From the IMG/VR virus record IMGVR_UViG_3300044580_000519, positions 1 through 48,897 of that record: a DNA stretch of 48,897 nucleotides. The stretch is one strand, 5' to 3'. This document shows, piece by piece, positions 1,538 to 42,855 of this stretch. A program made the translations under genes and the position numbers. How positions within the stretch are numbered: position 1 is the stretch's first letter; every line of letters starts with the position of its first letter. The stretch is from a virus (lineage: Duplodnaviria; Caudoviricetes). Under the pieces are notes generated by a model. The model did no database searches. It was not told where the DNA came from and saw only the letters and a program-made list of their open reading frames with translations.

Positions 1538-1900
1538 TTATTTTCCGTCGAATTCCTGAATATCTGCCCTAACCATAGCCTTAACGGACAATACTTCCGA
1601 TAAAAACTCTTTGTATTCCGTTTCGTCGGCCGGGTCTGTTGATAGCCCCAAAGCGAAAGCGTTGTACTTATTAATAAGGCTAAATTCTTCGGTTTCGGCC
1701 CGGCGGTCGCGAAGAACGGCCTTAACGCATTTTTCGTATTCCGGGGTTCCCCAAATTAGAACTGTATCGTATTCGTAGACGGTCTTTATTTCTCCTTTTT
1801 CGTTCTCTACTTCTACTTCTTTTATTTTGTGGTTGTAGTGCCAGCTACCGTTTCCCAAATCCAATAATTTAGGCGGCCTTACGTTTGAATTTGATTTCAT
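1538..1900 (-). CDS. Hypothetical protein, possibly tail fibre assembly chaperone
   Basis: 120 aa, overlaps RT stop by 32 nt, sits between tail-fibre/DGR block and lysis genes; function from position only. Confidence 0.45.
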   Translation of the reverse strand: MKSNSNVRPPKLLDLGNGSWHYNHKIKEVEVENEKGEIKTVYEYDTVLIWGTPEYEKCVKAVLRDRRAETEEFSLINKYNAFALGLSTDPADETEYKEFLSEVLSVKAMVRADIQEFDGK

Positions 1901-2885
1901 AAATTGAATTTTTAGAAAGTTTACTAATTAAATTCTTACTATCGCAATACTTAGCCCAACCCCACCAAGGGCAAATACTTTGCTTAAACTCTTTTTCGGT
2001 TAAATTCTTTCGCTTCCGTAACTTCGCTATTCTTCGGCAAAATGTTTTCTTTATGCTTTTACGCATCCGTGTATGCGTATGGAAGAAAACAAAACCTACG
2101 AAGTCAATACCCCGCGAATCAACCGGGAATATTTGCCAATTTCTTTTAACCTCTAATTTCAAATCCCCGAAATATTCCCTAATGTCGCTTAACAAGCCAT
2201 GTAGTAGGGTTTTGTCCGAAGAAAGTATTACTATGTCGTCCGCGTATCGGAAGTAGTACTTAACCCCTTTTACCTCTTTTATCCAATGGTCAAAATAGGC
2301 AAGGTAAAGGTTGGCAAAGTATTGACTTAAATAGTTGCCAATAGGTACGCCTTCCGCCGAATCTATAATTTCGTCAAGAAGCCATAGTAATTTTTTATCC
2401 TTTATTTTCCTACGAACTATTTCTTTTAAAACGTCGTGGTTAATAGAAGGGTAGAACTTGCGAACGTCGAGTTTTAGGCAATACTTTGTACCTTGCGGGT
2501 CTTCCCGTAATACCTTTCTAACCTTTTTAGCGGCCGCGTGTATTCCTTTGTTCTTTATACAGCTATAAGTGTCTTCCGTGAAAATAGAAACCCATATAGG
2601 TTCTAAAACATTCATTACTGCGTGGTGTACAATACGGTCGGGGAAATAAGGCAAGCGGTATATTTCGCGTTCTTTTGGTTCCCAAATAGTAAATACTTCG
2701 TACTTTGAAGTACGGAAAGTTTGGTTTAGTAAAGCTTCGCGTAGTTTAAGTATATTTTCGTCCCGGTTCTTATCGTGCTTTAGAACCCCATGCGAACGTA
2801 GTTTACCCTTCCGGGCTTTTTCGTCCGCTAACTTCAAGTTCTCTAAAGAGCAAACCGTTTCGTATAAATTACCTACTCGTTTCAT
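1869..2885 (-). CDS. DGR reverse transcriptase
   Basis: YADD catalytic motif (YFRYADDIVIL), GVPIGNYLSQ with DGR-type SQ, LKLDVRKFYPSI; 338 aa with no maturase or endonuclease domain; next to TR. Confidence 0.97.
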   Translation of the reverse strand: MKRVGNLYETVCSLENLKLADEKARKGKLRSHGVLKHDKNRDENILKLREALLNQTFRTSKYEVFTIWEPKEREIYRLPYFPDRIVHHAVMNVLEPIWVSIFTEDTYSCIKNKGIHAAAKKVRKVLREDPQGTKYCLKLDVRKFYPSINHDVLKEIVRRKIKDKKLLWLLDEIIDSAEGVPIGNYLSQYFANLYLAYFDHWIKEVKGVKYYFRYADDIVILSSDKTLLHGLLSDIREYFGDLKLEVKRNWQIFPVDSRGIDFVGFVFFHTHTRMRKSIKKTFCRRIAKLRKRKNLTEKEFKQSICPWWGWAKYCDSKNLISKLSKNSIYEIKFKRKAA

Positions 2886-2987: not shown

Positions 2988-3101
2988 TTAGCATAGCTGG
3001 GAGTTGATATTCGTATTCGTATTCGTGGCCGTGTTATTCGTATTCGCGTAGCTGAAACCCGCATTCGCGCTGTTATTCGCATTACCGCCAAACAAAACGC
3101 C
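2988..3101 (-). repeat. DGR template repeat (TR)
   Basis: Non-coding, AAT/AAC-rich (reads GVLFGGNANNSANAGFSYANTNNTATNTNTNINSQLC*); aligns without gaps to three VR-like segments. Confidence 0.97.
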
Positions 3102-3127
3102 CCAAAAAGCAAACAACCCTTTTTGTT

Positions 3128-3463
3128 TTATTCTAAAAAGTACCTTGTACCTGAAGCGCGCATAGTAACTTTTCTTGGGAAGGCCTTCATTTCTTTAATC
3201 TTTCCAAGTACGTACTTTATTTCGGAAGAATTGGTAAAGAACTTCCGGGCTTCGTTGTCGCTGTCTTCAAGGTTAAACTTAATCTTAACAAGGAAGCGAC
3301 CGTTCTCGAATTTTGTTTTTACGTCGTCCAAATAATCAACTACCCAAAACGAAAGGTTAATTAATTTTTGTTGGTTCGTTTCGGGGCAATTAAAATGCCT
3401 GTTGTTTGCGTCCGGCTGAATCTTTAGGAAGGATAAACTTCCGTCGTCTAATCTTTGTTCCAT
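3128..3463 (-). CDS. Putative DGR accessory protein in the avd position (not recognisably Avd)
   Basis: 111 aa between target gene and TR; beta-rich pattern rather than four-helix bundle. Confidence 0.6.
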   Translation of the reverse strand: MEQRLDDGSLSFLKIQPDANNRHFNCPETNQQKLINLSFWVVDYLDDVKTKFENGRFLVKIKFNLEDSDNEARKFFTNSSEIKYVLGKIKEMKAFPRKVTMRASGTRYFLE

Positions 3464-3515: not shown

Positions 3516-4838
3516 TTACGGTATAAAGCAAAGCCGAGAGCCTACATTAGCCGAGATCCCCATATCTGAGTAATCCGTACGGGTGTAGCCTAAACCAGCG
3601 GAAAGACTGGCTTCTGAAGAACCGCCAAAAAGAACAATCCTTTGAATTTCGGATGTTTCCGGTATAGATGTATAGAAGTAGTCGCAAAAGTATGTAGAAG
3701 AAGACGCGCCAACTTCTACGGGCATATTCTCCCCGTATTCTCCAACAATTATGCGCTTTACATAACCTGAATTTCGTGAAAGTAAACCCTTGAATTGGTA
3801 ATTGTCGTAATTGTTGCTTTGAAAGTTAGCCGGGTCTTCGCAAACGTAAAGTTCCGTCATACCCCCACTATCACTATTGCTTTGAATACGTACTTTAACG
3901 CCATCCGTACAACTCCAAATGTGGCCAAATGGATTTTCTAATCCCCTGTAACTTGGAACTTGTACGGTAAGACTTCCGTATTCTTGTGGCATTGCGAAAG
4001 CTACTATACCAGTACGGTTTCCTAAGCTGTTAGTATGTCCTACAGGAATAAAAGGATTATACGAATTAAAAGAACTCCACGTATCACCTACCAAAGTAGT
4101 AACTCCACTTCCTAAGCCGCCTTGTTTATACCCTTCGCTTGTGGGTTCTGCGTTGTACGCATATTGACTATTCAAGTTTGCGTATTCTATCGCGTAAAGC
4201 CAAAAACAAGTTTTTTGAATGTCGTAAACATCGCAATTCCATCCAGCCCCGTTCTTACCGGCTTCTCCCCGTTGGCGTGCGTATGCCCGGTAGTTTGTTA
4301 GGTTGGTAGAAGTTCCCGGCCGTCCTAACAAACTGCGATAGGTTCCGTCCCAACTTGTTATATTGTTTCCGCCCCTGAATTCTGCAGAAGAATTTACTAC
4401 CGAAGCCAATTTAGGTGCGCTACTTACTGTACGGTCTATTGCAGCTTCATAAGCCGAACGGTAACAAAGCGGTACGAAGTGGAAACCGGGTAGCGCGTAT
4501 TCTGAAATAAAACAACGATGTATATACCCGTCTACTTCGAACTTTCGGTAGTGTGCCGGTATTTCTACCATTACTTGTCCGTCGATTCCGTTCAAGTTTG
4601 CGGACGCGTTGTTATCTCGTTTGGTACTATCAGTAGGATTAAGATAATAGTTTACCGTTCCGTCGTCTTTCAAAATGCAACGGCGCATACGACTTTGAAT
4701 GGGCAAAGAAACATGAAGTTCCGGCCTTCCTATTCTATTGCAAGCCGGGTTAGCTACGTTATAATACCATTCTATACCGTAATAGTAATCATACGGAAAT
4801 ATTGGCTTTGTATTGCCAATCCCAATTATTAAGCCCAT
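3516..4838 (-). CDS. Tail fibre / receptor-binding protein with C-terminal C-type-lectin-like domain (ancestral DGR target)
   Basis: YRGLENPFGHIW motif and terminal VLFGG...GSRLCFIP matching TR translation; end of tail module. Confidence 0.8.
   Translation of the reverse strand: MGLIIGIGNTKPIFPYDYYYGIEWYYNVANPACNRIGRPELHVSLPIQSRMRRCILKDDGTVNYYLNPTDSTKRDNNASANLNGIDGQVMVEIPAHYRKFEVDGYIHRCFISEYALPGFHFVPLCYRSAYEAAIDRTVSSAPKLASVVNSSAEFRGGNNITSWDGTYRSLLGRPGTSTNLTNYRAYARQRGEAGKNGAGWNCDVYDIQKTCFWLYAIEYANLNSQYAYNAEPTSEGYKQGGLGSGVTTLVGDTWSSFNSYNPFIPVGHTNSLGNRTGIVAFAMPQEYGSLTVQVPSYRGLENPFGHIWSCTDGVKVRIQSNSDSGGMTELYVCEDPANFQSNNYDNYQFKGLLSRNSGYVKRIIVGEYGENMPVEVGASSSTYFCDYFYTSIPETSEIQRIVLFGGSSEASLSAGLGYTRTDYSDMGISANVGSRLCFIP
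3525..3638 (-). repeat. Degenerate variable repeat VR1
   Basis: Colinear with full TR but about 16 of 50 non-A positions differ in the 3' 78 nt. Confidence 0.8.
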
Positions 4839-4925: not shown

Positions 4926-4964
4926 CCCATATCGTTGCTTTTTGCTTCAAAAAAAGAACATATC

Positions 4965-8000: not shown

Positions 8001-8990
8001 GAATTCATAACCGGCCAAATTGCCCGTAGTAAACTTTACCTTTGCGCTTACGCCTGCTATTAGCCATTTCGTATTACCTTGGCCGTCCTTTTCGTTAAGG
8101 TCGAAATTCATAGTATTATCTATAAAAGCATAATACTTGCTTCCTAAGCCTGTTACTTCGCCGTATCGGTTCGGAAAAATGTTATCAAAAACCTTTGTAT
8201 TTTCTTTCAGTCCGAAAGCTGCAATAGCGGCCGCGCTTTCTATGTAAGAATCATTTTTACCGATACTTCCCGGAAGGCAAAGTTTACTATGTCGGTAAGT
8301 GTTCCCCAAGTTGTTACTTCCGCCGTAAATAAATAACCGGGTAACAACGTTCTTAGAATTTATATTTTGCCTTGTCAATTCGTACAAACCGCCCGTTTTC
8401 CCGTACCTGAATGTATAAGGGAAGGCTACGCCCGCTTTGCGAATATTAAGCGTTCTAATTCCGTTATTTTGCGTTATCTCAAATTCTTGGCTATACTCTT
8501 TGCAAAGGTCTTGTAATACATCTAAACAATTCCTACCGCTAAAAGTCAATGTCTTAAACTCTGTTTCTTGCGGGTATTCTCCAAGAACCCACTTATTAGG
8601 GAATACGCGCAAGACGTTTACTATTACTATTTGTAAGAAGTCTAACAAATTACCGGTAAAGCTGTCGCCTATCGTGTTGTACGGTAGTAAAAATTGTGCG
8701 TCTATTAATTCGTATTGTACCCCTTCAAATGTTAGGGTATATTCAAATTTACGCGTTCCGGTTTTCTTAACGGTCGGTAGTTGGTTTATCGTGTACGTTT
8801 TACCGTAGACCTCTATCGTATCCCCTAAAACAAATTCTAAGGGGGTTGCACTTTTTACCGTAATAGTTACGGTATCTTCCGCAAGAAGTCCTACGGATTG
8901 TTCGGCCTTAGTAATTCCCGAAGTTCGCGGCCCGGAATTTAGCAAGGTAGTGCTTCCGTCGGGGTGAGTAATGATAATATTTGAATTCAT
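5004..8990 (-). CDS. Large tail tip / host-specificity protein
   Basis: 1328 aa after distal-tail gene; N-terminal tail hub-like region (VVTRLFIYGG); internal ~150-aa duplication. Confidence 0.8.
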   Translation of the reverse strand: MNSNIIITHPDGSTTLLNSGPRTSGITKAEQSVGLLAEDTVTITVKSATPLEFVLGDTIEVYGKTYTINQLPTVKKTGTRKFEYTLTFEGVQYELIDAQFLLPYNTIGDSFTGNLLDFLQIVIVNVLRVFPNKWVLGEYPQETEFKTLTFSGRNCLDVLQDLCKEYSQEFEITQNNGIRTLNIRKAGVAFPYTFRYGKTGGLYELTRQNINSKNVVTRLFIYGGSNNLGNTYRHSKLCLPGSIGKNDSYIESAAAIAAFGLKENTKVFDNIFPNRYGEVTGLGSKYYAFIDNTMNFDLNEKDGQGNTKWLIAGVSAKVKFTTGNLAGYEFDVHKYDSSTKEIQLVPFTDESGMKFPSETSAAFQFSPGDKYFFTDINLPDQYKTEAELELQEEGESYYLQNCQPQVQYGLNIDQNFIKQFAGQLTVVNLFAVGDYIPVKDEDLGVDKSIRITGFTRDLLQPYKYSLTLGDSVTKTTITRVISDLKEIDEVIRINNLADPSKARRSWRASQEVLAMVFDPEGDYYSDKIKPLSIETTMLQVGAKSMQFVLRNVVFEPNYQGNPNYIRITGGHLIHYTIEEVIRTWEIAQVSYSNLVSNTAYYIYARCSKTTGAGSIILDTTQRKVDNEATYYTFLIGVLNSVETDTGGKNPARLVSLTYGSSTIAGRFIKTGRIESSGGSTYFDLDNEEIGGNINFISSDGSSKNVSDLDSVAQETKDYINNTLPGILDEIQAQLDGQIEQFFETYDPTTSNAPANTWITTADKENHLGDLFYNTSTGKVFRWIKNGTVYSWQELQDSELAQALALANEALALAKNKNRIFTTTPVTPYEIGDLWVQGASGDIMRCKVTRLTGSYNSSDWEKASQYTSDAGLNNFINGSYASTINDLTNQIDGKIESWFQTSDPATAWTTAAVRAKHVGDMWYSSATKLLKRYTVSGSTYGWTTIEDQKAIDAYEAAGQAQDTADGKRRVFVSTPYPPYEIGDLWVNGIDLRRCSTARTTGSYVANDWVIAVNYDNTVTTINGGIVTSGTVQLAGSGGSILAGITGQGTTSSSVRVWAGASYENRGMAPFRVLQDGSFVANKATIEGNINAISGSIGGFEIESGQIGATASGTGTSGQGLSLYNDFIKFANAYCWASIGANVLPAFIGSVGVGRFYNETPNSYGTNYGLLISVKNAAYNFAISATGDIVCNGMITSYPFTAITPDTNKTHIPGEASPCIQKVIVRFVNSNSGLGLPSRLSIASRLHINPSASFAIRFTVICSADSTVRGHIWGRTTERTDMSSINYPQRLNNNAGVETGGLAMEKGDIEEFFLVWDGINYRAYHLNSRS

Positions 8991-9601
8991 TGTTTTATAA
9001 TTTTTCGTTCAACTTTTTCAACGTCCCAACCAGCCCTATTTAACCTTGCGTATAATATGTATCTATCAATTTTAAGAATTTCGGCGAGTTTAGAAATGGT
9101 TATCATTTCCCCTTTGTAATTGACTTTACGATTATTTGTAAGGTTGTTTTGTTGCTCTTTATTTGTAGCCCAACGACAGTTAGAAGGTTCGTAATTGCCG
9201 TTTACGTCTATTCGGTCTAAGGTTTTACCTTCCGGCCGTTCGCCCATATCTTCTAAAAAGTGTTCAAAATCCGCCCAACGTTCACAAATTCTAATACCAC
9301 GTCCCCCGTAGTTTTTATAACGGGAATTTTGGGGGTTACAGCAACGTTGATGCATCATTTGCCAACATGAATATGTACTACTTGGTTTTTTACCAATTCC
9401 GCCGCTATGTCCATGCTTTATCATAATGCACCCACATGATTTTACGCTTCCGTTACGTAAATGATTTCCGGTTGCTTCTACTATTGTTCCGCAATCGCAA
9501 ATACATTTCCATACTACCTTTCCGCTCGCTCTTTTATCTGTTTTTTCTAAGACCGTAAGAAGGTTGTATTTTTCGCCTGTTAAATCTTTTATTATTTTCA
9601 T
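8987..9601 (-). CDS. HNH homing endonuclease (start revised to ATG 9601)
   Basis: DLTGEKY..WKCICDCG..SCGC N-terminus and TLDRIDVNGNYEPSNCRWAT motif; own promoter. Confidence 0.88.
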   Translation of the reverse strand: MKIIKDLTGEKYNLLTVLEKTDKRASGKVVWKCICDCGTIVEATGNHLRNGSVKSCGCIMIKHGHSGGIGKKPSSTYSCWQMMHQRCCNPQNSRYKNYGGRGIRICERWADFEHFLEDMGERPEGKTLDRIDVNGNYEPSNCRWATNKEQQNNLTNNRKVNYKGEMITISKLAEILKIDRYILYARLNRAGWDVEKVERKIIKQ

Positions 9602-9619
9602 ATCCACATAGTTATATTG

Positions 9620-9627
9620 CAAAGATA
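9620..9627 (-). promoter_or_regulatory. Bacteroidota -7 promoter box (TATCTTTG) for HNH gene
   Basis: Matches TAnnTTTG about 20 nt before ATG 9601. Confidence 0.6.
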
Positions 9628-29402: not shown

Positions 29403-30758
29403 TTACAATTTGGTTACTACTACTTCGGGGTCGAATAGCTTTATTCGGTCTATAATCACTTGGCAATACTTGGGGGAAATCTCCAACCCGTAACAATTCC
29501 GTTCTAATTGGTGGGAAGCTATAAGCGTCGAGCCGGAACCTAAAAAGAAGTCTATAACAAGGTCGTTTACCTTGCTACTGTTTCGTATAAGTCGGCCTAC
29601 CAACTTTACGGGCTTCATAGTCGGATGTTCGGCGTTTACTAAAGGTTTTTCTTCGTGTATTACCGTAGTCGGATGTTCTTTGTCGTTTTGTTGCTCCTTA
29701 ATGAAGGCTAACAACTCTTTTTTAGTCATAGAATCAAAGTCTATCTTATCTTCCATAACTGTACGTTGGGTTCTGTCTTTTACAAAGTAATGCGGGCCGC
29801 CGTCCTTCCAACCGTAAAGTATTGGTTCGTGTATCCATTGGTAATCTTGCCGGCCTATAACTATGTTATTCTTTACCCATATTAGTTGTTGCTTGTAAAG
29901 GAATCCGGCCCCGGTAAGTCCCGAAATGAAGTTTACGGCTTCGCGTGAAGCGTGGAAAACATAAATACCCGCGCCGGGCTTGGAAGAATCGAACAAACGG
30001 GCGTAAACGCTTTCTAAGAAGTTCTTAAATTGCGCGTCGTTCATATTGTCGTTTTCTATGTCCGTTTGTATCCTGTTTCCCCGATCGGTTTTATTAAGAA
30101 GTTCGTTTTTGCCTGCGTAATCTACGTTATAAGGCGGGTCGGTTACTATAATATCGGCAATCCTTCCGCCCATAAGTTTAGCAACGTCTATTAGGCTGGT
30201 AGAATCCCCGCACATAACCCTATGGCAAATATCCCCCTTGCGAATCTCGAATATATCCCCTTCTTTTATGTCGGTTTCTATATCGGCTTCGGAAGGTGGG
30301 TTAAATCCGTCTTCGCTTAGTTCTTTGTCCGGTTCTTCTTCCCCCAATTCAATAGGAACGCCCCAGCCTTCGGAATCAATACCCCAAGTTTCGGTAGCTT
30401 CGCTTAAAGCGGTTTCGTCCCAATCCAAGTTAGCCGCGCCGGTTGCGTTGTCTGCTAAAGCAAGTTCCCGCCCTTCCTTCGTGTCTAAATCTATGTCGGT
30501 ACGCTTTACGGCTACTATTTCGTCCCCGGTTGTTTCAACTATCAAAACCTTATCTAACCCTATTTGGCCGGCGTTCTCTACGGTTTTGTTTCCGGCTATA
30601 ATACGGTTATTTTTGTCGAGCAATATAGAACGGCCCGCGCCAAATTGTCGTAGGCTCTTTTCTATTAAACTTTGCCCGTACTCGGTTCCCTTATTAAAAT
30701 TTACGTCGTCCGGGATAAGCTGGTCTATTTTCGCTTTTATAACTTTTTTTTCTGCCAT
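29403..30758 (-). CDS. ParB-like domain fused to N6/N4 DNA methyltransferase
   Basis: IIAGN..LALADN N-terminus; TDPPY, HPTMKP, DFFLGSG. Confidence 0.9.
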   Translation of the reverse strand: MAEKKVIKAKIDQLIPDDVNFNKGTEYGQSLIEKSLRQFGAGRSILLDKNNRIIAGNKTVENAGQIGLDKVLIVETTGDEIVAVKRTDIDLDTKEGRELALADNATGAANLDWDETALSEATETWGIDSEGWGVPIELGEEEPDKELSEDGFNPPSEADIETDIKEGDIFEIRKGDICHRVMCGDSTSLIDVAKLMGGRIADIIVTDPPYNVDYAGKNELLNKTDRGNRIQTDIENDNMNDAQFKNFLESVYARLFDSSKPGAGIYVFHASREAVNFISGLTGAGFLYKQQLIWVKNNIVIGRQDYQWIHEPILYGWKDGGPHYFVKDRTQRTVMEDKIDFDSMTKKELLAFIKEQQNDKEHPTTVIHEEKPLVNAEHPTMKPVKLVGRLIRNSSKVNDLVIDFFLGSGSTLIASHQLERNCYGLEISPKYCQVIIDRIKLFDPEVVVTKL

Positions 30759-30858: not shown

Positions 30859-31209
30859 TTAAATGGCTAAATATTGCTTAATTGTATTGCGGAAGTCGTC
30901 GAAAGAACGGCAAATTACATATTTGTATCCGTATGTTTCTATAAGTTCTTGCCATTTTTTTTGGCTTGGTTGTTGCTTTCCCTTCTCTGTTTTGAACTCA
31001 ATACAAAGAGAATGAAAGCCCGAAGAAGGGTATAATAGTATAACATCTGCAACACCTGCCGTAACGCCTTCGCCTTTCATTATTGCCGCTTCTCTTTTGT
31101 TCCTTGCTCCGCCGTTTGGAACTGCAAATAATAGGCAGGCTATACTTGGATATTGTAACCGGAACCAAGTAACACAATTTCTTTGTATTTGGCTTTCTTC
31201 GTGCTTCAT
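30859..31209 (-). CDS. VRR-NUC domain nuclease (Holliday junction resolvase-like)
   Basis: AVPNGG, GVTAGVAD, IEFK motifs. Confidence 0.88.
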   Translation of the reverse strand: MKHEESQIQRNCVTWFRLQYPSIACLLFAVPNGGARNKREAAIMKGEGVTAGVADVILLYPSSGFHSLCIEFKTEKGKQQPSQKKWQELIETYGYKYVICRSFDDFRNTIKQYLAI

Positions 31210-31754
31210 AACAATCTGAATGTATAATTGCGATAACTGTTATGTTCGCCGGATATAACGCGCTGTACAGTTCGGCGGTCAAGGTTATACTTTCGGCAAA
31301 GTTCCCTTATGGATTTTTCTACCCCAATAACTTTCCCGCCTTTAATAATTTCAATACTCTTACTTAATCCATTGTCTACGGGTGTTTGAAGACCAATATT
31401 ATAAGCGTGTTTCATATTTTCTTTTTGTGTTACCCATTCAAGGTTACACGCTCTATTATCGGTCTTTATTCCATTGATATGGTTTACCTGTAAGTTTTCT
31501 TTTTTACCTTTAACAAACATATCTGCAACCAATCTATGTATTTTGCAATGTTTTGCGTTACCATTCATATATAAGTGAACTTGTTTATAACCTGCGCAGT
31601 CAAGATAAAAGGCTTTTATTTTCCCTTTCTTGGCAACTGTCTTTCCATCTCTTTTTAATACAACAATATCAAGGCTTTTTACATTACCTAAATCGCTAAC
31701 TTGGTAGCGTCCTTCGTAACCGGGTATATCCTTCCATTGTTCGTTATCCTTCAT
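31206..31754 (-). CDS. NUMOD4-HNH homing endonuclease
   Basis: WKDIPGYEGRYQVSDLGNVKS; IHRLVA..VNHINGIKTDNRACNLEW. Confidence 0.92.
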   Translation of the reverse strand: MKDNEQWKDIPGYEGRYQVSDLGNVKSLDIVVLKRDGKTVAKKGKIKAFYLDCAGYKQVHLYMNGNAKHCKIHRLVADMFVKGKKENLQVNHINGIKTDNRACNLEWVTQKENMKHAYNIGLQTPVDNGLSKSIEIIKGGKVIGVEKSIRELCRKYNLDRRTVQRVISGEHNSYRNYTFRLL

Positions 31755-33941: not shown

Positions 33942-34169
33942 TTACTGATTAATATTATTTTCAAATCTCATACAAGCGTTATCCATTCGTTTAACCGCTT
34001 TTACCCCGTAGGGCGTTCGGTTGCTTTTCGTAATTGTGCAATACCAATACCTATTAGAATAGGGGTTAAGGTTTGCTATATGCTTACAATCCCTACAGCG
34101 TTTTCCGGGGTAAGGAAGGCTTTCTTTCGGGTCTATTTCCGGTATGTCAAATAAAGTTTTCATTTTCAA
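33942..34169 (-). CDS. Small Cys-rich hypothetical protein
   Basis: CRDCKH..C..C pattern. Confidence 0.6.
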   Translation of the reverse strand: MKMKTLFDIPEIDPKESLPYPGKRCRDCKHIANLNPYSNRYWYCTITKSNRTPYGVKAVKRMDNACMRFENNINQ

Positions 34170-35971
34170 GCTGCTTTTTTAGCTGTAATAAATAGTTCTT
34201 CTACCAAGACTTCGCAAAGTACCCGCGCTATGTTTACTTCTACCGCGTTGCCTATAAATTTCTTTTGGTCGGCCTGCGTTCCTACAAGTTTGTAGTTCTC
34301 CGGGAAGCCCATAATTCGTTTTAGTTCCGGTATTTTTAACATTCTCATTTTAATATCTGCAATACCGTATAGGGCCATAAACTCTTTAATTTTTATCATT
34401 GGTTCGCTATCCGTTTCGTAAACCTCAATAGCTATAAAACCTTCTTCGGTTGCAACCAGGTAAGGCGGCATTTTATCCATACGCGCAATAAGCGTAAAGC
34501 AAGGGTTATCTACCGAACCGCCCGCGTTAAAAAATTGGGGGTTCATTAAATAATGCCATTTCCTGTTAGCGGTTATCGTTTGGCTTGGCTCCGTAATCGG
34601 GCTTCCTATATTGGAAAAGTTGGTATTCATTAGCCAAGGTTTGCAATTAACAAGGCTATACTTATCCTTTGTAGTTACCGCGCCGCAAGGGTTTTCTATA
34701 CTTGCCGGTTTTGATTGTCCAAATTGTTGGTCTATGAATCTGCAAGCTACTAACCGTTGTTTTGGAATCGTAGTTAATCCGGGGCAAGGGCTATCTATTT
34801 CGCTATGTTGTCCGCCGCCGCTATAATAGTTCATAAAGAACGGCGTAACCTTTGCTAACCGGTCTTTACACGTAATTGTAGGGGAAGGTTCGTTTATACT
34901 ATGATTATGCCCGTTACCGTAATAAGCGGATAAAAATTCTGATTGAATAAGGCTAAAGCAATCCTTTGTACGAATGGTTCCGGCCGGCGCGTCTATTGAT
35001 TGGTTTTTGTTTTCCGGCGTACCGCTATAATATTTTGTAAGGAAGTTTATTTTTGCAACCCCTAACCGGTTTTGGCAAGCTACCGTAGGGCAAGGTTCAT
35101 CTATCGACGGCGGTACGTGTTTTCCCGTTTTTTTGTTTATTGAATTGTATTTAATCATAAACGCGTCCTTCCCGCCTGCAACAAATTTTATAAGACCAGC
35201 GTAAATTCGTTCCAACGTTTTAGGCGAAAGGGGTTTTTTGCGGGTAAATATGCTTACGCCTTCGTCTGAAAAGTCTAATACCTCTTTTACCGGCTTCCAT
35301 TTTTTTAGTGTATCGAATAAGTCCTTACTTCCTGTTTTAGAGTGGGTAGGTTTCGGAAAAACAATAGGAAGGCCTTGTTTTGCAAATATTCCAAAGAATC
35401 GCTTCCGGGAAGTGTAGGCCCCGTAGTCGGCGGCGTTTAATAGTCGTAAATCGAATTTATAACCGTAATTCTTAACGTTTTCAACCCATTGTAAATATAG
35501 CCTTCCCCTGTCTTTGCTTATCGGTTTCCCGTTTTCGTCCAAGTCCCCCCAGCACATAAATTCTTCTACGTTTTCTATCTGTATCAAATCGGGGTTAATA
35601 GCTTCTATATATCTAAATAAATGTTCTGCCAGCGTCCTACTATCCGCGTCGCGCGGTTGTCCGCCTTTGGCCTTGCTGAAATTGGTACACTCTAAAGAAG
35701 CCCAAAGTACTACTAAAGCGTTAGGGTACTTCTTCTTTTCTTCCAAGATATGTTTTACCAAACGGTCTAATTTCAAGGTTCTAATATCTTCCGTAAAATG
35801 TAACGCTTCGGGGTGGTTTGCCGCATGGCTGGCTATTGCGTTAGCGTCGTGGTTTACGCAAGCTATAACCTTAGCGCACTTCCTGCCTTTGTAATTCGCT
35901 TTTTCAACCCCCGTACTTGTACCGCCGGCCCCGCAAAACAAATCAATATAAAGTAGTCTAATATCTTCCAT
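34166..35971 (-). CDS. C5 cytosine DNA methyltransferase with repeat-expanded variable region
   Basis: DLFCGAGG, SLECTNFS, IENVEEF, RKRFF, IGNAV motifs. Confidence 0.92.
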   Translation of the reverse strand: MEDIRLLYIDLFCGAGGTSTGVEKANYKGRKCAKVIACVNHDANAIASHAANHPEALHFTEDIRTLKLDRLVKHILEEKKKYPNALVVLWASLECTNFSKAKGGQPRDADSRTLAEHLFRYIEAINPDLIQIENVEEFMCWGDLDENGKPISKDRGRLYLQWVENVKNYGYKFDLRLLNAADYGAYTSRKRFFGIFAKQGLPIVFPKPTHSKTGSKDLFDTLKKWKPVKEVLDFSDEGVSIFTRKKPLSPKTLERIYAGLIKFVAGGKDAFMIKYNSINKKTGKHVPPSIDEPCPTVACQNRLGVAKINFLTKYYSGTPENKNQSIDAPAGTIRTKDCFSLIQSEFLSAYYGNGHNHSINEPSPTITCKDRLAKVTPFFMNYYSGGGQHSEIDSPCPGLTTIPKQRLVACRFIDQQFGQSKPASIENPCGAVTTKDKYSLVNCKPWLMNTNFSNIGSPITEPSQTITANRKWHYLMNPQFFNAGGSVDNPCFTLIARMDKMPPYLVATEEGFIAIEVYETDSEPMIKIKEFMALYGIADIKMRMLKIPELKRIMGFPENYKLVGTQADQKKFIGNAVEVNIARVLCEVLVEELFITAKKAA

Positions 35972-35977
35972 AAATTA

Positions 35978-36865
35978 TTATCTAAAAACCCCCAATTCTC
36001 TATTAATTTTATCGTTACTAATTGCTACGTACTCCGGGTTTAACTCGAAACCTATGTAATTGCGGTATAATTTCCGGGCTACTATTGCGGTTGTCCCGGA
36101 ACCCATAAAGGGGTCAAGAACTACCCCGCCTTCAGGGCAACCCGCTTTAATGCAATCAACTATAAGCGTGTCGGGGAATACTGCAAAATGATTTTCTTTA
36201 TTAGGCTTAGTCGGAACACTCCAAACGTCCCGCTTATTGACTTTTTCGGTAGGTGTAAAAGTCCTATCCGTATTTCTTCTATAAATAGGGTCGGTAGTAT
36301 CTACTTCCGTCCTCTTATTTCCGCCTATTCTGTAAGCTGCAGGGTTCATGTTCGGTTTGGCTGGTATTTGTATCGCTTCTTTGTCAAAGTAATAGTTTGC
36401 AGACTTGCTCAACAAAAAAATATATTCGTGGCTTTTACCACAACGGTCTTTAACGCTTTCCGGCATAGCGTTAGGTTTATGCCATATAATATCTTGCCGT
36501 AAATACCAACCTTCCCGGCGAAGTGCAAAGGCAAGTATCCAAGGGATACCTATTAAATCTTTGGGTTTTATAAATTCGTGTTTCTTATCCGTTGGCCTTG
36601 TATATCCTTTTCCGCTCCAGTAAGAATCCCCTATATTAATCCAAAGCGTACCGGTAGGCTTCAATACTCTATAAACTTCCATAAAAACCCCTACTAAGCG
36701 GTCTATATATTCTTCCGGCGTGTCTTCTAATCCTATTTGTTCATTTGCCCCGTAATCCCTAAGTCCGTAATAAGGCGGGGAAGTTACGCAACAATCTATA
36801 CTATTGTCTGGAAGGTTTTTTAGTCCGTTTTTGCAATCGTTATTATATATAATATTTATGTCCAT
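35978..36865 (-). CDS. N4/N6 DNA methyltransferase (beta class)
   Basis: TSPPY, HFAVFP, DPFMGSGTT. Confidence 0.92.
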   Translation of the reverse strand: MDINIIYNNDCKNGLKNLPDNSIDCCVTSPPYYGLRDYGANEQIGLEDTPEEYIDRLVGVFMEVYRVLKPTGTLWINIGDSYWSGKGYTRPTDKKHEFIKPKDLIGIPWILAFALRREGWYLRQDIIWHKPNAMPESVKDRCGKSHEYIFLLSKSANYYFDKEAIQIPAKPNMNPAAYRIGGNKRTEVDTTDPIYRRNTDRTFTPTEKVNKRDVWSVPTKPNKENHFAVFPDTLIVDCIKAGCPEGGVVLDPFMGSGTTAIVARKLYRNYIGFELNPEYVAISNDKINRELGVFR

Positions 36866-39963: not shown

Positions 39964-40491
39964 TTATTTTATTAAAAGGAAATCGTTATAAAGGCCTTCA
40001 AACGTTTTTCCGGCGTACGCGGCGAGTTCAAGTGTTTTAAAGCAAAGCCGGGAGCAGATATACGTATACGTATGCGTGGCCGTGTGAATCGAATACGCGC
40101 AGCCGAAACCCGCAGAATGTTGGTTATATACGAACCAAGGCCAATACTTATACTCGTTGCTATTAGTCCAATCCGGCCGCCAACCTTCGTTAAGGGCTTC
40201 GCCAATGGTTTTTAGCTTACGGTAGGCTATTTCGTCTTTTGTAAAACCTAACTTTTGTAGAACTTCGTCTACAATTGGTTCAACTCCAAGAACCGCGCAA
40301 GCGTCGGCGTAATTTCTTACCCGCTTAATATCCTTCGGGTTTGTTTTGGCTACGGCTTTTAAAGTCGTAACTTCTACACCTAACTTTTCGGCCAAGCGTT
40401 CCGCTTCTTTGGTAGCCGCCGTTTCGTCTTCATACTTAACCGTAGGCGCGCCTTGGCCTTCGGCGTAATTCATAAAAAAGTCTTTTTTCAT
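39964..40491 (-). CDS. Remote DGR target protein A (175 aa, unknown function)
   Basis: Contains VR2; paralog of 42445-42855 (DACxVLG, ALNEGWxPxW, EYKY, SRLCFK). Confidence 0.9.
   Translation of the reverse strand: MKKDFFMNYAEGQGAPTVKYEDETAATKEAERLAEKLGVEVTTLKAVAKTNPKDIKRVRNYADACAVLGVEPIVDEVLQKLGFTKDEIAYRKLKTIGEALNEGWRPDWTNSNEYKYWPWFVYNQHSAGFGCAYSIHTATHTYTYICSRLCFKTLELAAYAGKTFEGLYNDFLLIK
40039..40116 (-). repeat. Variable repeat VR2
   Basis: 78 nt vs TR 2988-3065: 17 mismatches, all at TR adenines. Confidence 0.96.
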
Positions 40492-41647: not shown

Positions 41648-42448
41648 TTAAAAGACGGGAGTTTTAGTTTTATTTTTAGGGGTAGCTTCCGGGCCTGGCC
41701 CTTCCGGTTGTTGGTCGAAATTTAAAGTACCGTCCGCGTTAGCTTTGGTAGCTATTTCGCTTTCTACCGTTTCCGTTACGTCTTCGTGCGTAATATCTAC
41801 TACGCTACTTTGTTCGTCGGCTTCTCCGAAGTCGCAACCCGTAATATATTCGTATAGGGCTTTTTTGGCGCGTCTTTCCGCTTTCCCGCGTAATTGGTCG
41901 GGGCTGCTATATTCGTCCTTCTTTACCGTAGCTATCACCCCGAAGCTGTTTTTTTCGCCGTTATGTTCGTAATTGATTTTACAGGGTATTTCCGCGAAGT
42001 TTGGGTTTTGCCCTTTATCAAAAGAAACATCTATAAAATACTTAACCCCAAGGCGTCGAAGAAGGGCGGTATAGCCTTCTTTGGTAGGGTACATCCGTTC
42101 CGCAATAATATTAAATTGGTTTCCGGTAGGAAGAAGCCCAATACTAACCGCGTCTATAATTGCGTCCCTAACTACCGGAATAGTATAAACCGGAAGGGCC
42201 GGACGGCCGTTGCTTCTTGGTCTACCGTTTCGGTCGGTAAGAAAGCCTACTTTCGTATTCATAAGCGGCATAAACACCTTATTCATAACTTCGTCCGTTA
42301 ATGCTTCCCGAAGCAAGGCAATAACATTAACCGCCGTAAAAGCGGCCCCAAAGTTGTTTACAATCTGCAACGCCGAAGCGTCTTTACAGGCTAATTCAAA
42401 TTTCATTTTCGCCTGTTCAATTACTGTTAAACCTGTTTCTTGGCTCAT
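41648..42448 (-). CDS. Putative single-strand annealing recombinase (RecT-like)
   Basis: Position between SMC-like ATPase and MBL nuclease; acidic flexible C-terminus; family not confirmed. Confidence 0.5.
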   Translation of the reverse strand: MSQETGLTVIEQAKMKFELACKDASALQIVNNFGAAFTAVNVIALLREALTDEVMNKVFMPLMNTKVGFLTDRNGRPRSNGRPALPVYTIPVVRDAIIDAVSIGLLPTGNQFNIIAERMYPTKEGYTALLRRLGVKYFIDVSFDKGQNPNFAEIPCKINYEHNGEKNSFGVIATVKKDEYSSPDQLRGKAERRAKKALYEYITGCDFGEADEQSSVVDITHEDVTETVESEIATKANADGTLNFDQQPEGPGPEATPKNKTKTPVF

Positions 42449-42855
42449 TTTCCGTAATTTTTAGGAAGTTCAATAAATAAATATTCAAAATATAAATCCC
42501 GGAATTGAACGCGCGCGTAGCGTGCTAACGTGTCGCTTTTAAAGCAAAGCCGGGAGTTGATATTCGGATACGTATTCGTGGCCGTGCTATTCGCATACGC
42601 GTAGCCGAAACCCGCAGAATCCAAATAGAACCAATTAAAATACTTGTATTCGTTCCAATCATTCCAATTTGGTTCCCAGCCTTCATTAAGGGCGCGAATT
42701 ATTACCGTTAGCTTATAGTAAGCTATAATAGACTTGCGGTCTTTTTCGGGCAATAAATCTACTACCGGGAGTTGTTTAGGGTCTAAGCCCAATACCTTAC
42801 AAGCGTCCTCAAACGTTTTTACCTTGTCGGTAATCTTTATTTCTTCTTTTTTCAT
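42445..42855 (-). CDS. Remote DGR target protein B (136 aa, unknown function)
   Basis: Contains VR3; paralog of 39964-40491. Confidence 0.9.
   Translation of the reverse strand: MKKEEIKITDKVKTFEDACKVLGLDPKQLPVVDLLPEKDRKSIIAYYKLTVIIRALNEGWEPNWNDWNEYKYFNWFYLDSAGFGYAYANSTATNTYPNINSRLCFKSDTLARYARVQFRDLYFEYLFIELPKNYGK
42541..42618 (-). repeat. Variable repeat VR3
   Basis: 78 nt vs TR 2988-3065: 12 mismatches, all at TR adenines. Confidence 0.96.

Follow-up and report, generated by a model that had tools for sequence, protein, structure and literature searches.

A provirus retroelement rewrites a remote early gene through an internal variable region

Among diversity-generating retroelements (DGRs), that of Bordetella phage BPP-1 (mtd-avd-TR-brt) combines a reverse transcriptase (RT), a template repeat (TR), an adenine-specific variable region (VR) and an IMH-like 3′ end, and it diversifies the C-terminus of a lectin tail protein, with an inverted repeat downstream and an Avd. 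The first four of these elements are shared by the provirus locus described here, whereas its target (gene A) is remote from the cassette, the VR is internal, no stem-loop signal was detected, and a phrog_19665 gene occupies the avd position. In the survey of Roux 2021 (PMC8144416), annotated VR domains are lectin folds and VRs lie at the C-terminus, mostly in attachment proteins, for the stated reason that cis elements can then be intergenic. Targets far from the cassette have been described in gut phages: Benler 2021 (PMC8008677) reported a distal second target of Quimbyvirus (ORF 80/84) near methyltransferases and a tRNA ligase, called it a C-type lectin and proposed a conflict role, and Dahlman 2025 (PMC12629997) reported four gut prophages with a second VR far from the RT cassette and near counter-defence genes. 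The Dahlman VRs resemble that of gene A in their remote position.

The locus adds a new member to a cluster already on record, PC_00007 of Roux 2021 (PMC8144416), and both the family and its distal targeting have been catalogued before. This cluster, labelled 'Phage_other' (non-structural/unknown), comprises at least 1,694 table rows, is phage-encoded with FCB hosts, and includes both adjacent pairs and distant single targets; 1.6% of it is predicted to be structural, a structural role is left open, and in the available text the cluster is tabulated without fold, pairing or function. The pattern K-T-F/Y-x-D-A-C ... ALNEGW ... KYxPWF ... SRL of the family of gene A fits PC_00007, two members of which (2576065990 and 2576065991), judged by eye, carry ALNEGW...SRL as well. 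Moreover, the VR midpoint of A (138/175, or 0.79 of the length) falls within the range of 0.64–0.82 seen among the 30 PC_00007 rows listed. A helical fold or pairing for the family was not found in the searches of the openly accessible literature.

A further homolog, LoVEphage QVQ57199.1 (phrog_11581), is 30% identical to A and very likely corresponds to the distal target of Benler 2021, because it has a Quimbyvirus-like neighbourhood, a three-piece RT and a VR with 0/59 non-A mismatches. The lectin assignment made by Benler 2021 for this target disagrees with the model and motifs of the A family presented below. The LoVEphage member also copies the whole TR, whereas A copies only its 3′ 75 nt, and the available text on Quimbyvirus reports no paralog, whereas the provirus has two paralogs at remote positions and a tail VR that appears uncoupled.

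Remote targets of the prophage DGR

The window, the whole stretch of 48,897 nucleotides that was analysed, is a 48.9-kb provirus record with a completeness of 97%, and carries lysis, tail, head, replication and integrase modules. Because the nearest genome-contig matches of gene A were Bacteroidales MAGs (79% identity), the host probably belongs to the Bacteroidales. The DGR cassette forms the left end, with a tail gene, a 111-aa gene, the TR and the RT (Table 1); in relatives of the RT, the TR and a tail VR adjoin the RT. In a scan of a subset of window ORFs, the 111-aa gene had no Pfam family; it matches phrog_19665. Genes of phrog_19665 encode 98–111 aa, shorter than the 160–169 aa of CH1 of Wu 2018, and overlap the RT stop in 45 compact cassettes (e.g. 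L228:7421-7717 and L113:7896-8195). The gene is therefore regarded as a candidate DGR accessory gene.

Gene A and its paralog B are both located in a co-directional early (recombination-replication) run, ordered as SbcC-like ATPase, B, 266-aa unknown, MBL-fold hydrolase, A, 143-aa unknown, DUF2303-like, replication genes and methyltransferases. Gene A lies 10 kb or more from the terminase, with the tail genes further off. In the prophage, 37 kb separate VR-A from the TR, a distance that would shrink to about 12 kb in the excised circle. Three DNA methyltransferase genes (29403–30758, 34166–35971 and 35978–36865) lie downstream of A in the same orientation, at 3 kb or more, and the immediate neighbours of A are ordinary early genes, with no defence genes among them. 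A homing-endonuclease-like NUMOD4/HNH gene was noted at 31206–31754; a gene at 8987–9622, between tail genes, is presumably homing-endonuclease-like as well, to judge from a motif, and had no Pfam match. An imperfect palindrome of about 27 nt (families D2/D4) recurs at 4957, 19918, 21176, 30788 and 36866, mostly in intergenic positions, and might be an operator or promoter; promoter and terminator scans remained at chance level.

Table 1. Features of the DGR and of its remote targets (window coordinates).
Feature	Position	Strand	Remarks
DGR reverse transcriptase	1869..2885	-	338 aa, open frame, RVT_1
Template repeat (TR)	2990..3103	-	114 nt; remote targets copy only the 3′ 75 nt
111-aa gene	3128..3463	-	phrog_19665; at avd position; candidate accessory gene
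Adjacent tail-protein target	3516..4838	-	440 aa; phrog_5302
Target A	39964..40491	-	175 aa; phrog_11581 / Roux PC_00007 family; early run
A post-VR residues (24)	39967..40038	-	two predicted helices; 171–174 in predicted pair interface
A core domain	39964..40344	-	residues 50–175; predicted all-helical; common to B
IMH-like 3′ repeat end	40036..40053	-	codons 147–152, inside coding sequence; putative function
VR-A	40042..40116	-	codons 126–150
A N-terminal module	40345..40491	-	residues 1–49; predicted strand-strand-helix-strand
Paralog B	42445..42855	-	136 aa; core domain without N-terminal module; the other remote target
VR-B	42544..42618	-

Compared with the 75-nt TR core (2990–3064, minus strand; NAGFSYANTNNTATNTNTNINSQLC), VR-A was changed at 14/25 TR adenines and at 0/50 non-adenines, and VR-B at 9/25 adenines and again at 0/50 non-adenines. 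Neither A nor B contains a copy of the 5′ 39 nt of the TR (25/32 and 22/32 non-A mismatches, respectively), and when 60-nt TR pieces were run without gaps along the entire minus strand, only the TR, VR-A and VR-B reached a non-A match of 80%. This confirmed gene A as a true remote target of the prophage DGR, as a preliminary description of the sequence had claimed. That description had also presented A as an early protein of two domains, with an extra N-terminal module of about 50 aa missing from B. In agreement with this, A57–175 aligned with B11–129 at 50% identity, leaving some 46–49 additional N-terminal residues in A, a separate N-terminal module and core were predicted, and the gene stands in the early run.

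The family consists of a core of about 120 aa with several unrelated N-terminal parts, or none, and the N-terminal module of A is swapped for other modules in homologs; it may serve as a swappable docking or effector part. For A and B, no Pfam, NCBIfam, PADLOC or PDB-sequence family was matched, nor any DNA-binding or regulator family, and atlas matches were unnamed. A fold search with the N-terminal module yielded only tied weak rows at Z 5.0 and below, including T4 Dmd and AcrIC9, and two homologs gave DUF2188 matches below threshold, all of which we treat as leads only. Longer fusions of the family with informative domains were not found. Distant homologs were seen in the crAss-like phages cr60_1 and cr109_1 (NC_055891 and NC_055892), and Bacteroides phage BT-TP2 (PQ571279) holds an unannotated distant copy.

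The VR of the adjacent tail gene (3527–3640, minus strand) differed from the TR at 28/81 non-A positions, synonymous ones included, and at one base within the GC-rich end. In 59 of 75 related RT loci, the tail VR had at most 3 non-A mismatches, while 5 loci were intermediate and 11 had no VR in the fetched stretch; in the locus with a 99% identical RT (L001), the tail VR had 0/81 non-A mismatches. No metagenome stretch contained an exact 22-mer of the window tail VR, and four further runs covered only short pieces of the cassette. The tail VR of this one genome therefore appears uncoupled from the TR, and the DGR would here serve only A and B; a frozen allele, a recombinant or an assembly fault may underlie the mismatches. 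Two phage DGRs with a non-adjacent target only were reported by Wu 2018.

The A-specific diversity on which the preliminary description had staked its reading is present. Among 120 homologs, 111 distinct VR strings were found, with entropy peaks at residues 133, 135, 136, 140, 142 and 144, all of which correspond to AAT/AAC codons of the TR. In contigs from four runs, each belonging to a separate study, 10/11 VR-A and 6/6 VR-B differences fell on TR adenines, counted among the differences listed (40 of 141 rows, some of which mix in tail-VR contigs). When family VRs were compared with the TR on the same contig, 0 non-A mismatches were found in 5/6 pairs, each with its own, different TR, and the sixth was frameshifted; the next-best place on these contigs gave only 26–29 matches of 53–54. 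In a wider set, non-A mismatches numbered 2 or fewer in 46/66 rows; the stretch compared was fixed at 75 nt and extends past the end of shorter VRs (two rows lacking the end motif are omitted and one row occurs twice). Of the genes in 39 cassette loci on genome contigs, 86/89 matched their own TR, as opposed to 0/89 when the 5′ portions of these genes were compared, and in one genome a single TR matched the tail gene, A and B, each with 0/51 non-A mismatches; these loci share kinship, and the counts are not independent events. Judged from these alignments, adenine-only targeting is general and recent in the family.

Several smaller observations accompany these comparisons. At position 42557, the counterpart of TR position 3004, B shares with the window TR an adenine that the TR of L001 lacks and at which four runs show G; B was therefore likely rewritten after the TR change. 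The same TR codon corresponds to Cys146 of A, where 116/120 homologs have Gly. A one-base frameshift inside the VR of two A homologs (L102 and L107) removes the conserved post-VR helices. RTs in two or three pieces accompany family genes in G012, G031, G034, G045 and LoVEphage (47912–48984), and in G012 and LoVEphage the VR still matches the TR. Among residues at AAY codons, tyrosine ranks first both in family VRs (39/240) and in tail VRs (67/291). Loop tyrosine enrichment (25% of 666 residues) was dropped as a sign of selection, the tail VRs being the same and RT bias unseparated.

The internal variable region and its predicted scaffold

As the preliminary description had stated, the translation of ORF A contains SAGFGCAYSIHTATHTYTYICSRLCF followed by 24 residues (152–175). 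Its remark that VRs are classically C-terminal is right in that an internal VR is unusual, but the arrangement is not unique, since Wu 2018 lists internal VRs and those of PC_00007 lie well inside the protein (Roux 2021). In 99 of 110 representatives that had the end motif (of 150 examined), 22–28 residues followed this motif; none had fewer than 15 and six had at least 100. The family profile spans 4021 clusters at 50% identity, and the internal VR is, as far as these sequences go, a family-wide trait. Six proteins (L141, L153, P0158, P0160, P0161 and P0199) carry 143–169 further post-VR residues, forming an added domain without a Pfam family.

An RT was found within 900 bp downstream in 63/144 family loci, 58 of which had tandem paralogs, typically laid out as a long gene, a short gene, about 215 nt with the TR, and the RT. 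The other 81 loci held at most one family copy in 71 cases, and two fused cores were seen in 12/150 representatives, some of which are possibly read-through artefacts. Compact cassettes in which 2–4 tandem family genes, a TR and an RT occur together, each gene matching the one TR (L113, L122–L160 and L215–L264), span many Bacteroidota, including Flavobacterium, Chryseobacterium, Elizabethkingia and Chitinophagaceae.

Since 24 codons follow VR-A, any IMH or stem-loop must be located in coding sequence. A GC-rich end, unlike the end of the TR, is common to all three VRs (A, B and tail). No stem-loop was detected: the 66 nt after the VR of A folded no better than synonymous controls (z –0.25), and over 43 sequences the mean z was –0.48, with values below –1.5 in 8/43. 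An inverted repeat follows the IMH in only 34% of DGRs according to Wu 2018, and in the reconstituted BPP-1 system the stem-loop repeat was not strictly needed (PMC12875486).

The core of A, modelled from an alignment of 144 sequences (pLDDT 83.5, pTM 0.77), was predicted to consist of five helices, with no strand of three or more residues and a pLDDT of 92–96 over core residues 11–70. The VR forms a low-confidence loop (pLDDT 50–62) between single bridges at A116 and A151, after which two helices follow (pLDDT >90); strands inside the loop may have been missed, because it is poorly predicted. In a C-type lectin DGR domain, beta strands before the VR build a two-sheet core, and the motifs G[NH]xWxW and xxxGG are typical of lectin-type DGR targets. 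A departs from such a domain both in the residues that follow its VR and, in the predicted model, in having only helices before it. The two motifs were found in 0/144 family rows, as opposed to 20/21 and 21/21 rows of the tail target, which is presumed from these motifs to have a lectin fold; the LoVEphage member, outside the 144-row alignment, does have the xxWGG stretch, derived from its TR. Family and tail profiles aligned over 29 TR-derived VR columns only, and the VR ends in GSRLC, as in the tail target.

Among 48,161 chains, no fold match to the core reached Z 5; the best was a tail chain of SSV19 at Z 3.9 (rmsd 3.8, 69 aligned), and no lectin was present in the best 50 matches listed. 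Foldseek against the PDB gave no match for the core at E 0.001, and a viral structure library returned only uncharacterised proteins of like size. These failed searches do not make the core fold new; the tail domain, used as a positive control, gave no PDB or fitting Pfam match. On the strength of the model and the profiles, the TR-derived segment was quite likely grafted into an unrelated helical scaffold, and one template would therefore serve two different folds.

When the core of A was modelled with B, a pair score of 0.64 was obtained, the best of three controls scoring 0.00; this mark was reached by 116/157 solved pairs and 2/215 mismatched pairs. At least 79% of the contacts recurred between runs, and the partner pLDDT was at least 76. 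The predicted interface is pseudo-symmetric, placing helix A86–94 against B42–50, and includes the 3′ half of the VR (139–148), while the C-terminal tails touch the VR base of the partner (A171–174 with B100–102, and A146–147 with B126–127). Because overlapping alignments were used, this result cannot separate A:B from A:A or B:B pairing, and what the models support is a probable dimer surface of the family rather than A:B in particular. Pairing with B is moreover not obligatory, since B was seen in only 2/36 loci of close A homologs (within the fetched stretch, several stretches being short). Participation of the tails in the predicted interface would explain why the post-VR residues are retained.

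Possible roles of the rewritten loop

The following mechanism might account for these features. The TR rewrites a 25-codon stretch inside the early-operon gene A, the product of which is predicted to carry this stretch as a loop flanked by the KYWPW and RLCF segments of a helical core. The protein likely pairs, with itself or with B, via the post-VR helices, across a predicted two-fold interface made of helix 86–94, the VR 3′ half (139–148) and the partner's C-terminal tail (171–174). These helices would both close the domain and form the pair, thereby forcing the homing signal into the coding sequence, and the rewritten loop would likely bind a changing intracellular partner, for which a protein of host defence or of a rival phage is the likeliest candidate. 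A is presumably cytoplasmic and made early, since it has no long hydrophobic stretch (maximum 19-residue hydropathy 1.03) and its gene lies among recombination and replication genes. We give an even chance to this reading as a whole, in which A acts early in the cytoplasm and its loop binds a partner that changes, most likely as part of a conflict involving host defence or rival phages; the early neighbours without defence genes count against the conflict part of it. More speculatively, and in our estimate rather doubtfully, the family could act as an intracellular 'phage antibody', in which paralogs on a non-lectin helical scaffold, each randomised from the one template, pair (AA, AB or BB) like heavy and light chains, combinatorial two-loop binders neutralise host immune or rival-phage proteins, N-terminal effectors are swappable, and the DGR of this genome has left the tail fibre and works for this system alone.

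A heavily reduced C-type lectin, in which the TR stretch folds as the last lectin strands upon binding or pairing and helices replace the rest, is an unlikely but serious competitor. The GSRLC end that the VR has in common with the tail target, the full xxWGG...GSRL stretch copied by the LoVEphage member and the low confidence of the modelled loop would all accommodate it, and such domains have been interpreted as lectins or probable lectin variants (Benler 2021; Roux 2021); the confidently modelled residues before the VR are nonetheless exclusively helical, lectin-type motifs are absent from all 144 family rows, and no profile likeness to the tail domain extends beyond the 29 VR columns. The presence of the 3′ half of each VR in the predicted interface, the place of A and B among phage recombination genes and the single-copy state of most close relatives could instead suit a variable self/non-self label or regulator of the phage itself, acting in superinfection exclusion, the lysis-lysogeny decision or recombination control, with allele pairing as the recognition event. 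We hold this to be slightly less likely than the reduced lectin: no DNA-binding or regulator family was matched, and random rewriting would break self-recognition unless the pair is held by constant contacts, to which the strongest predicted contacts point.

Still less probable is a minor virion or injected protein, serving as a second receptor-binding part or in early host takeover: the residues at AAY codons have a spectrum like that of tail VRs, with tyrosine leading in both, and a structural role was left open by Roux 2021, but the gene sits in the early run, well away from the terminase and further still from the tail genes, and little of PC_00007 is predicted structural. That the loop is a tolerated bystander of retrohoming, without a selected binding role, we consider very improbable indeed. 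The family has no known function, A carries Cys146 where nearly all homologs have Gly, and the VR is frameshifted in two relatives, as a bystander might be; the 4021 clusters, the compact cassettes with family genes directly before TR and RT, and the non-A match of VR and TR kept across diverged TRs all speak against it.

All through the family, the VR departs from the C-terminal rule, and if the predicted model is right the fold rule is broken as well. If the preferred reading of a loop that binds a changing intracellular partner is true, the core would amount to a 125-residue soluble scaffold tolerating up to about 10^14 loop sequences (an upper bound), the role of phage DGRs inside the cell could be tested by pull-down in cultured Bacteroides phages, and the family would provide a natural setting in which to test homing signals that lie within coding sequence. 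The family would then represent a little-studied way for a virus to vary recognition, one that likely operates inside the cell.
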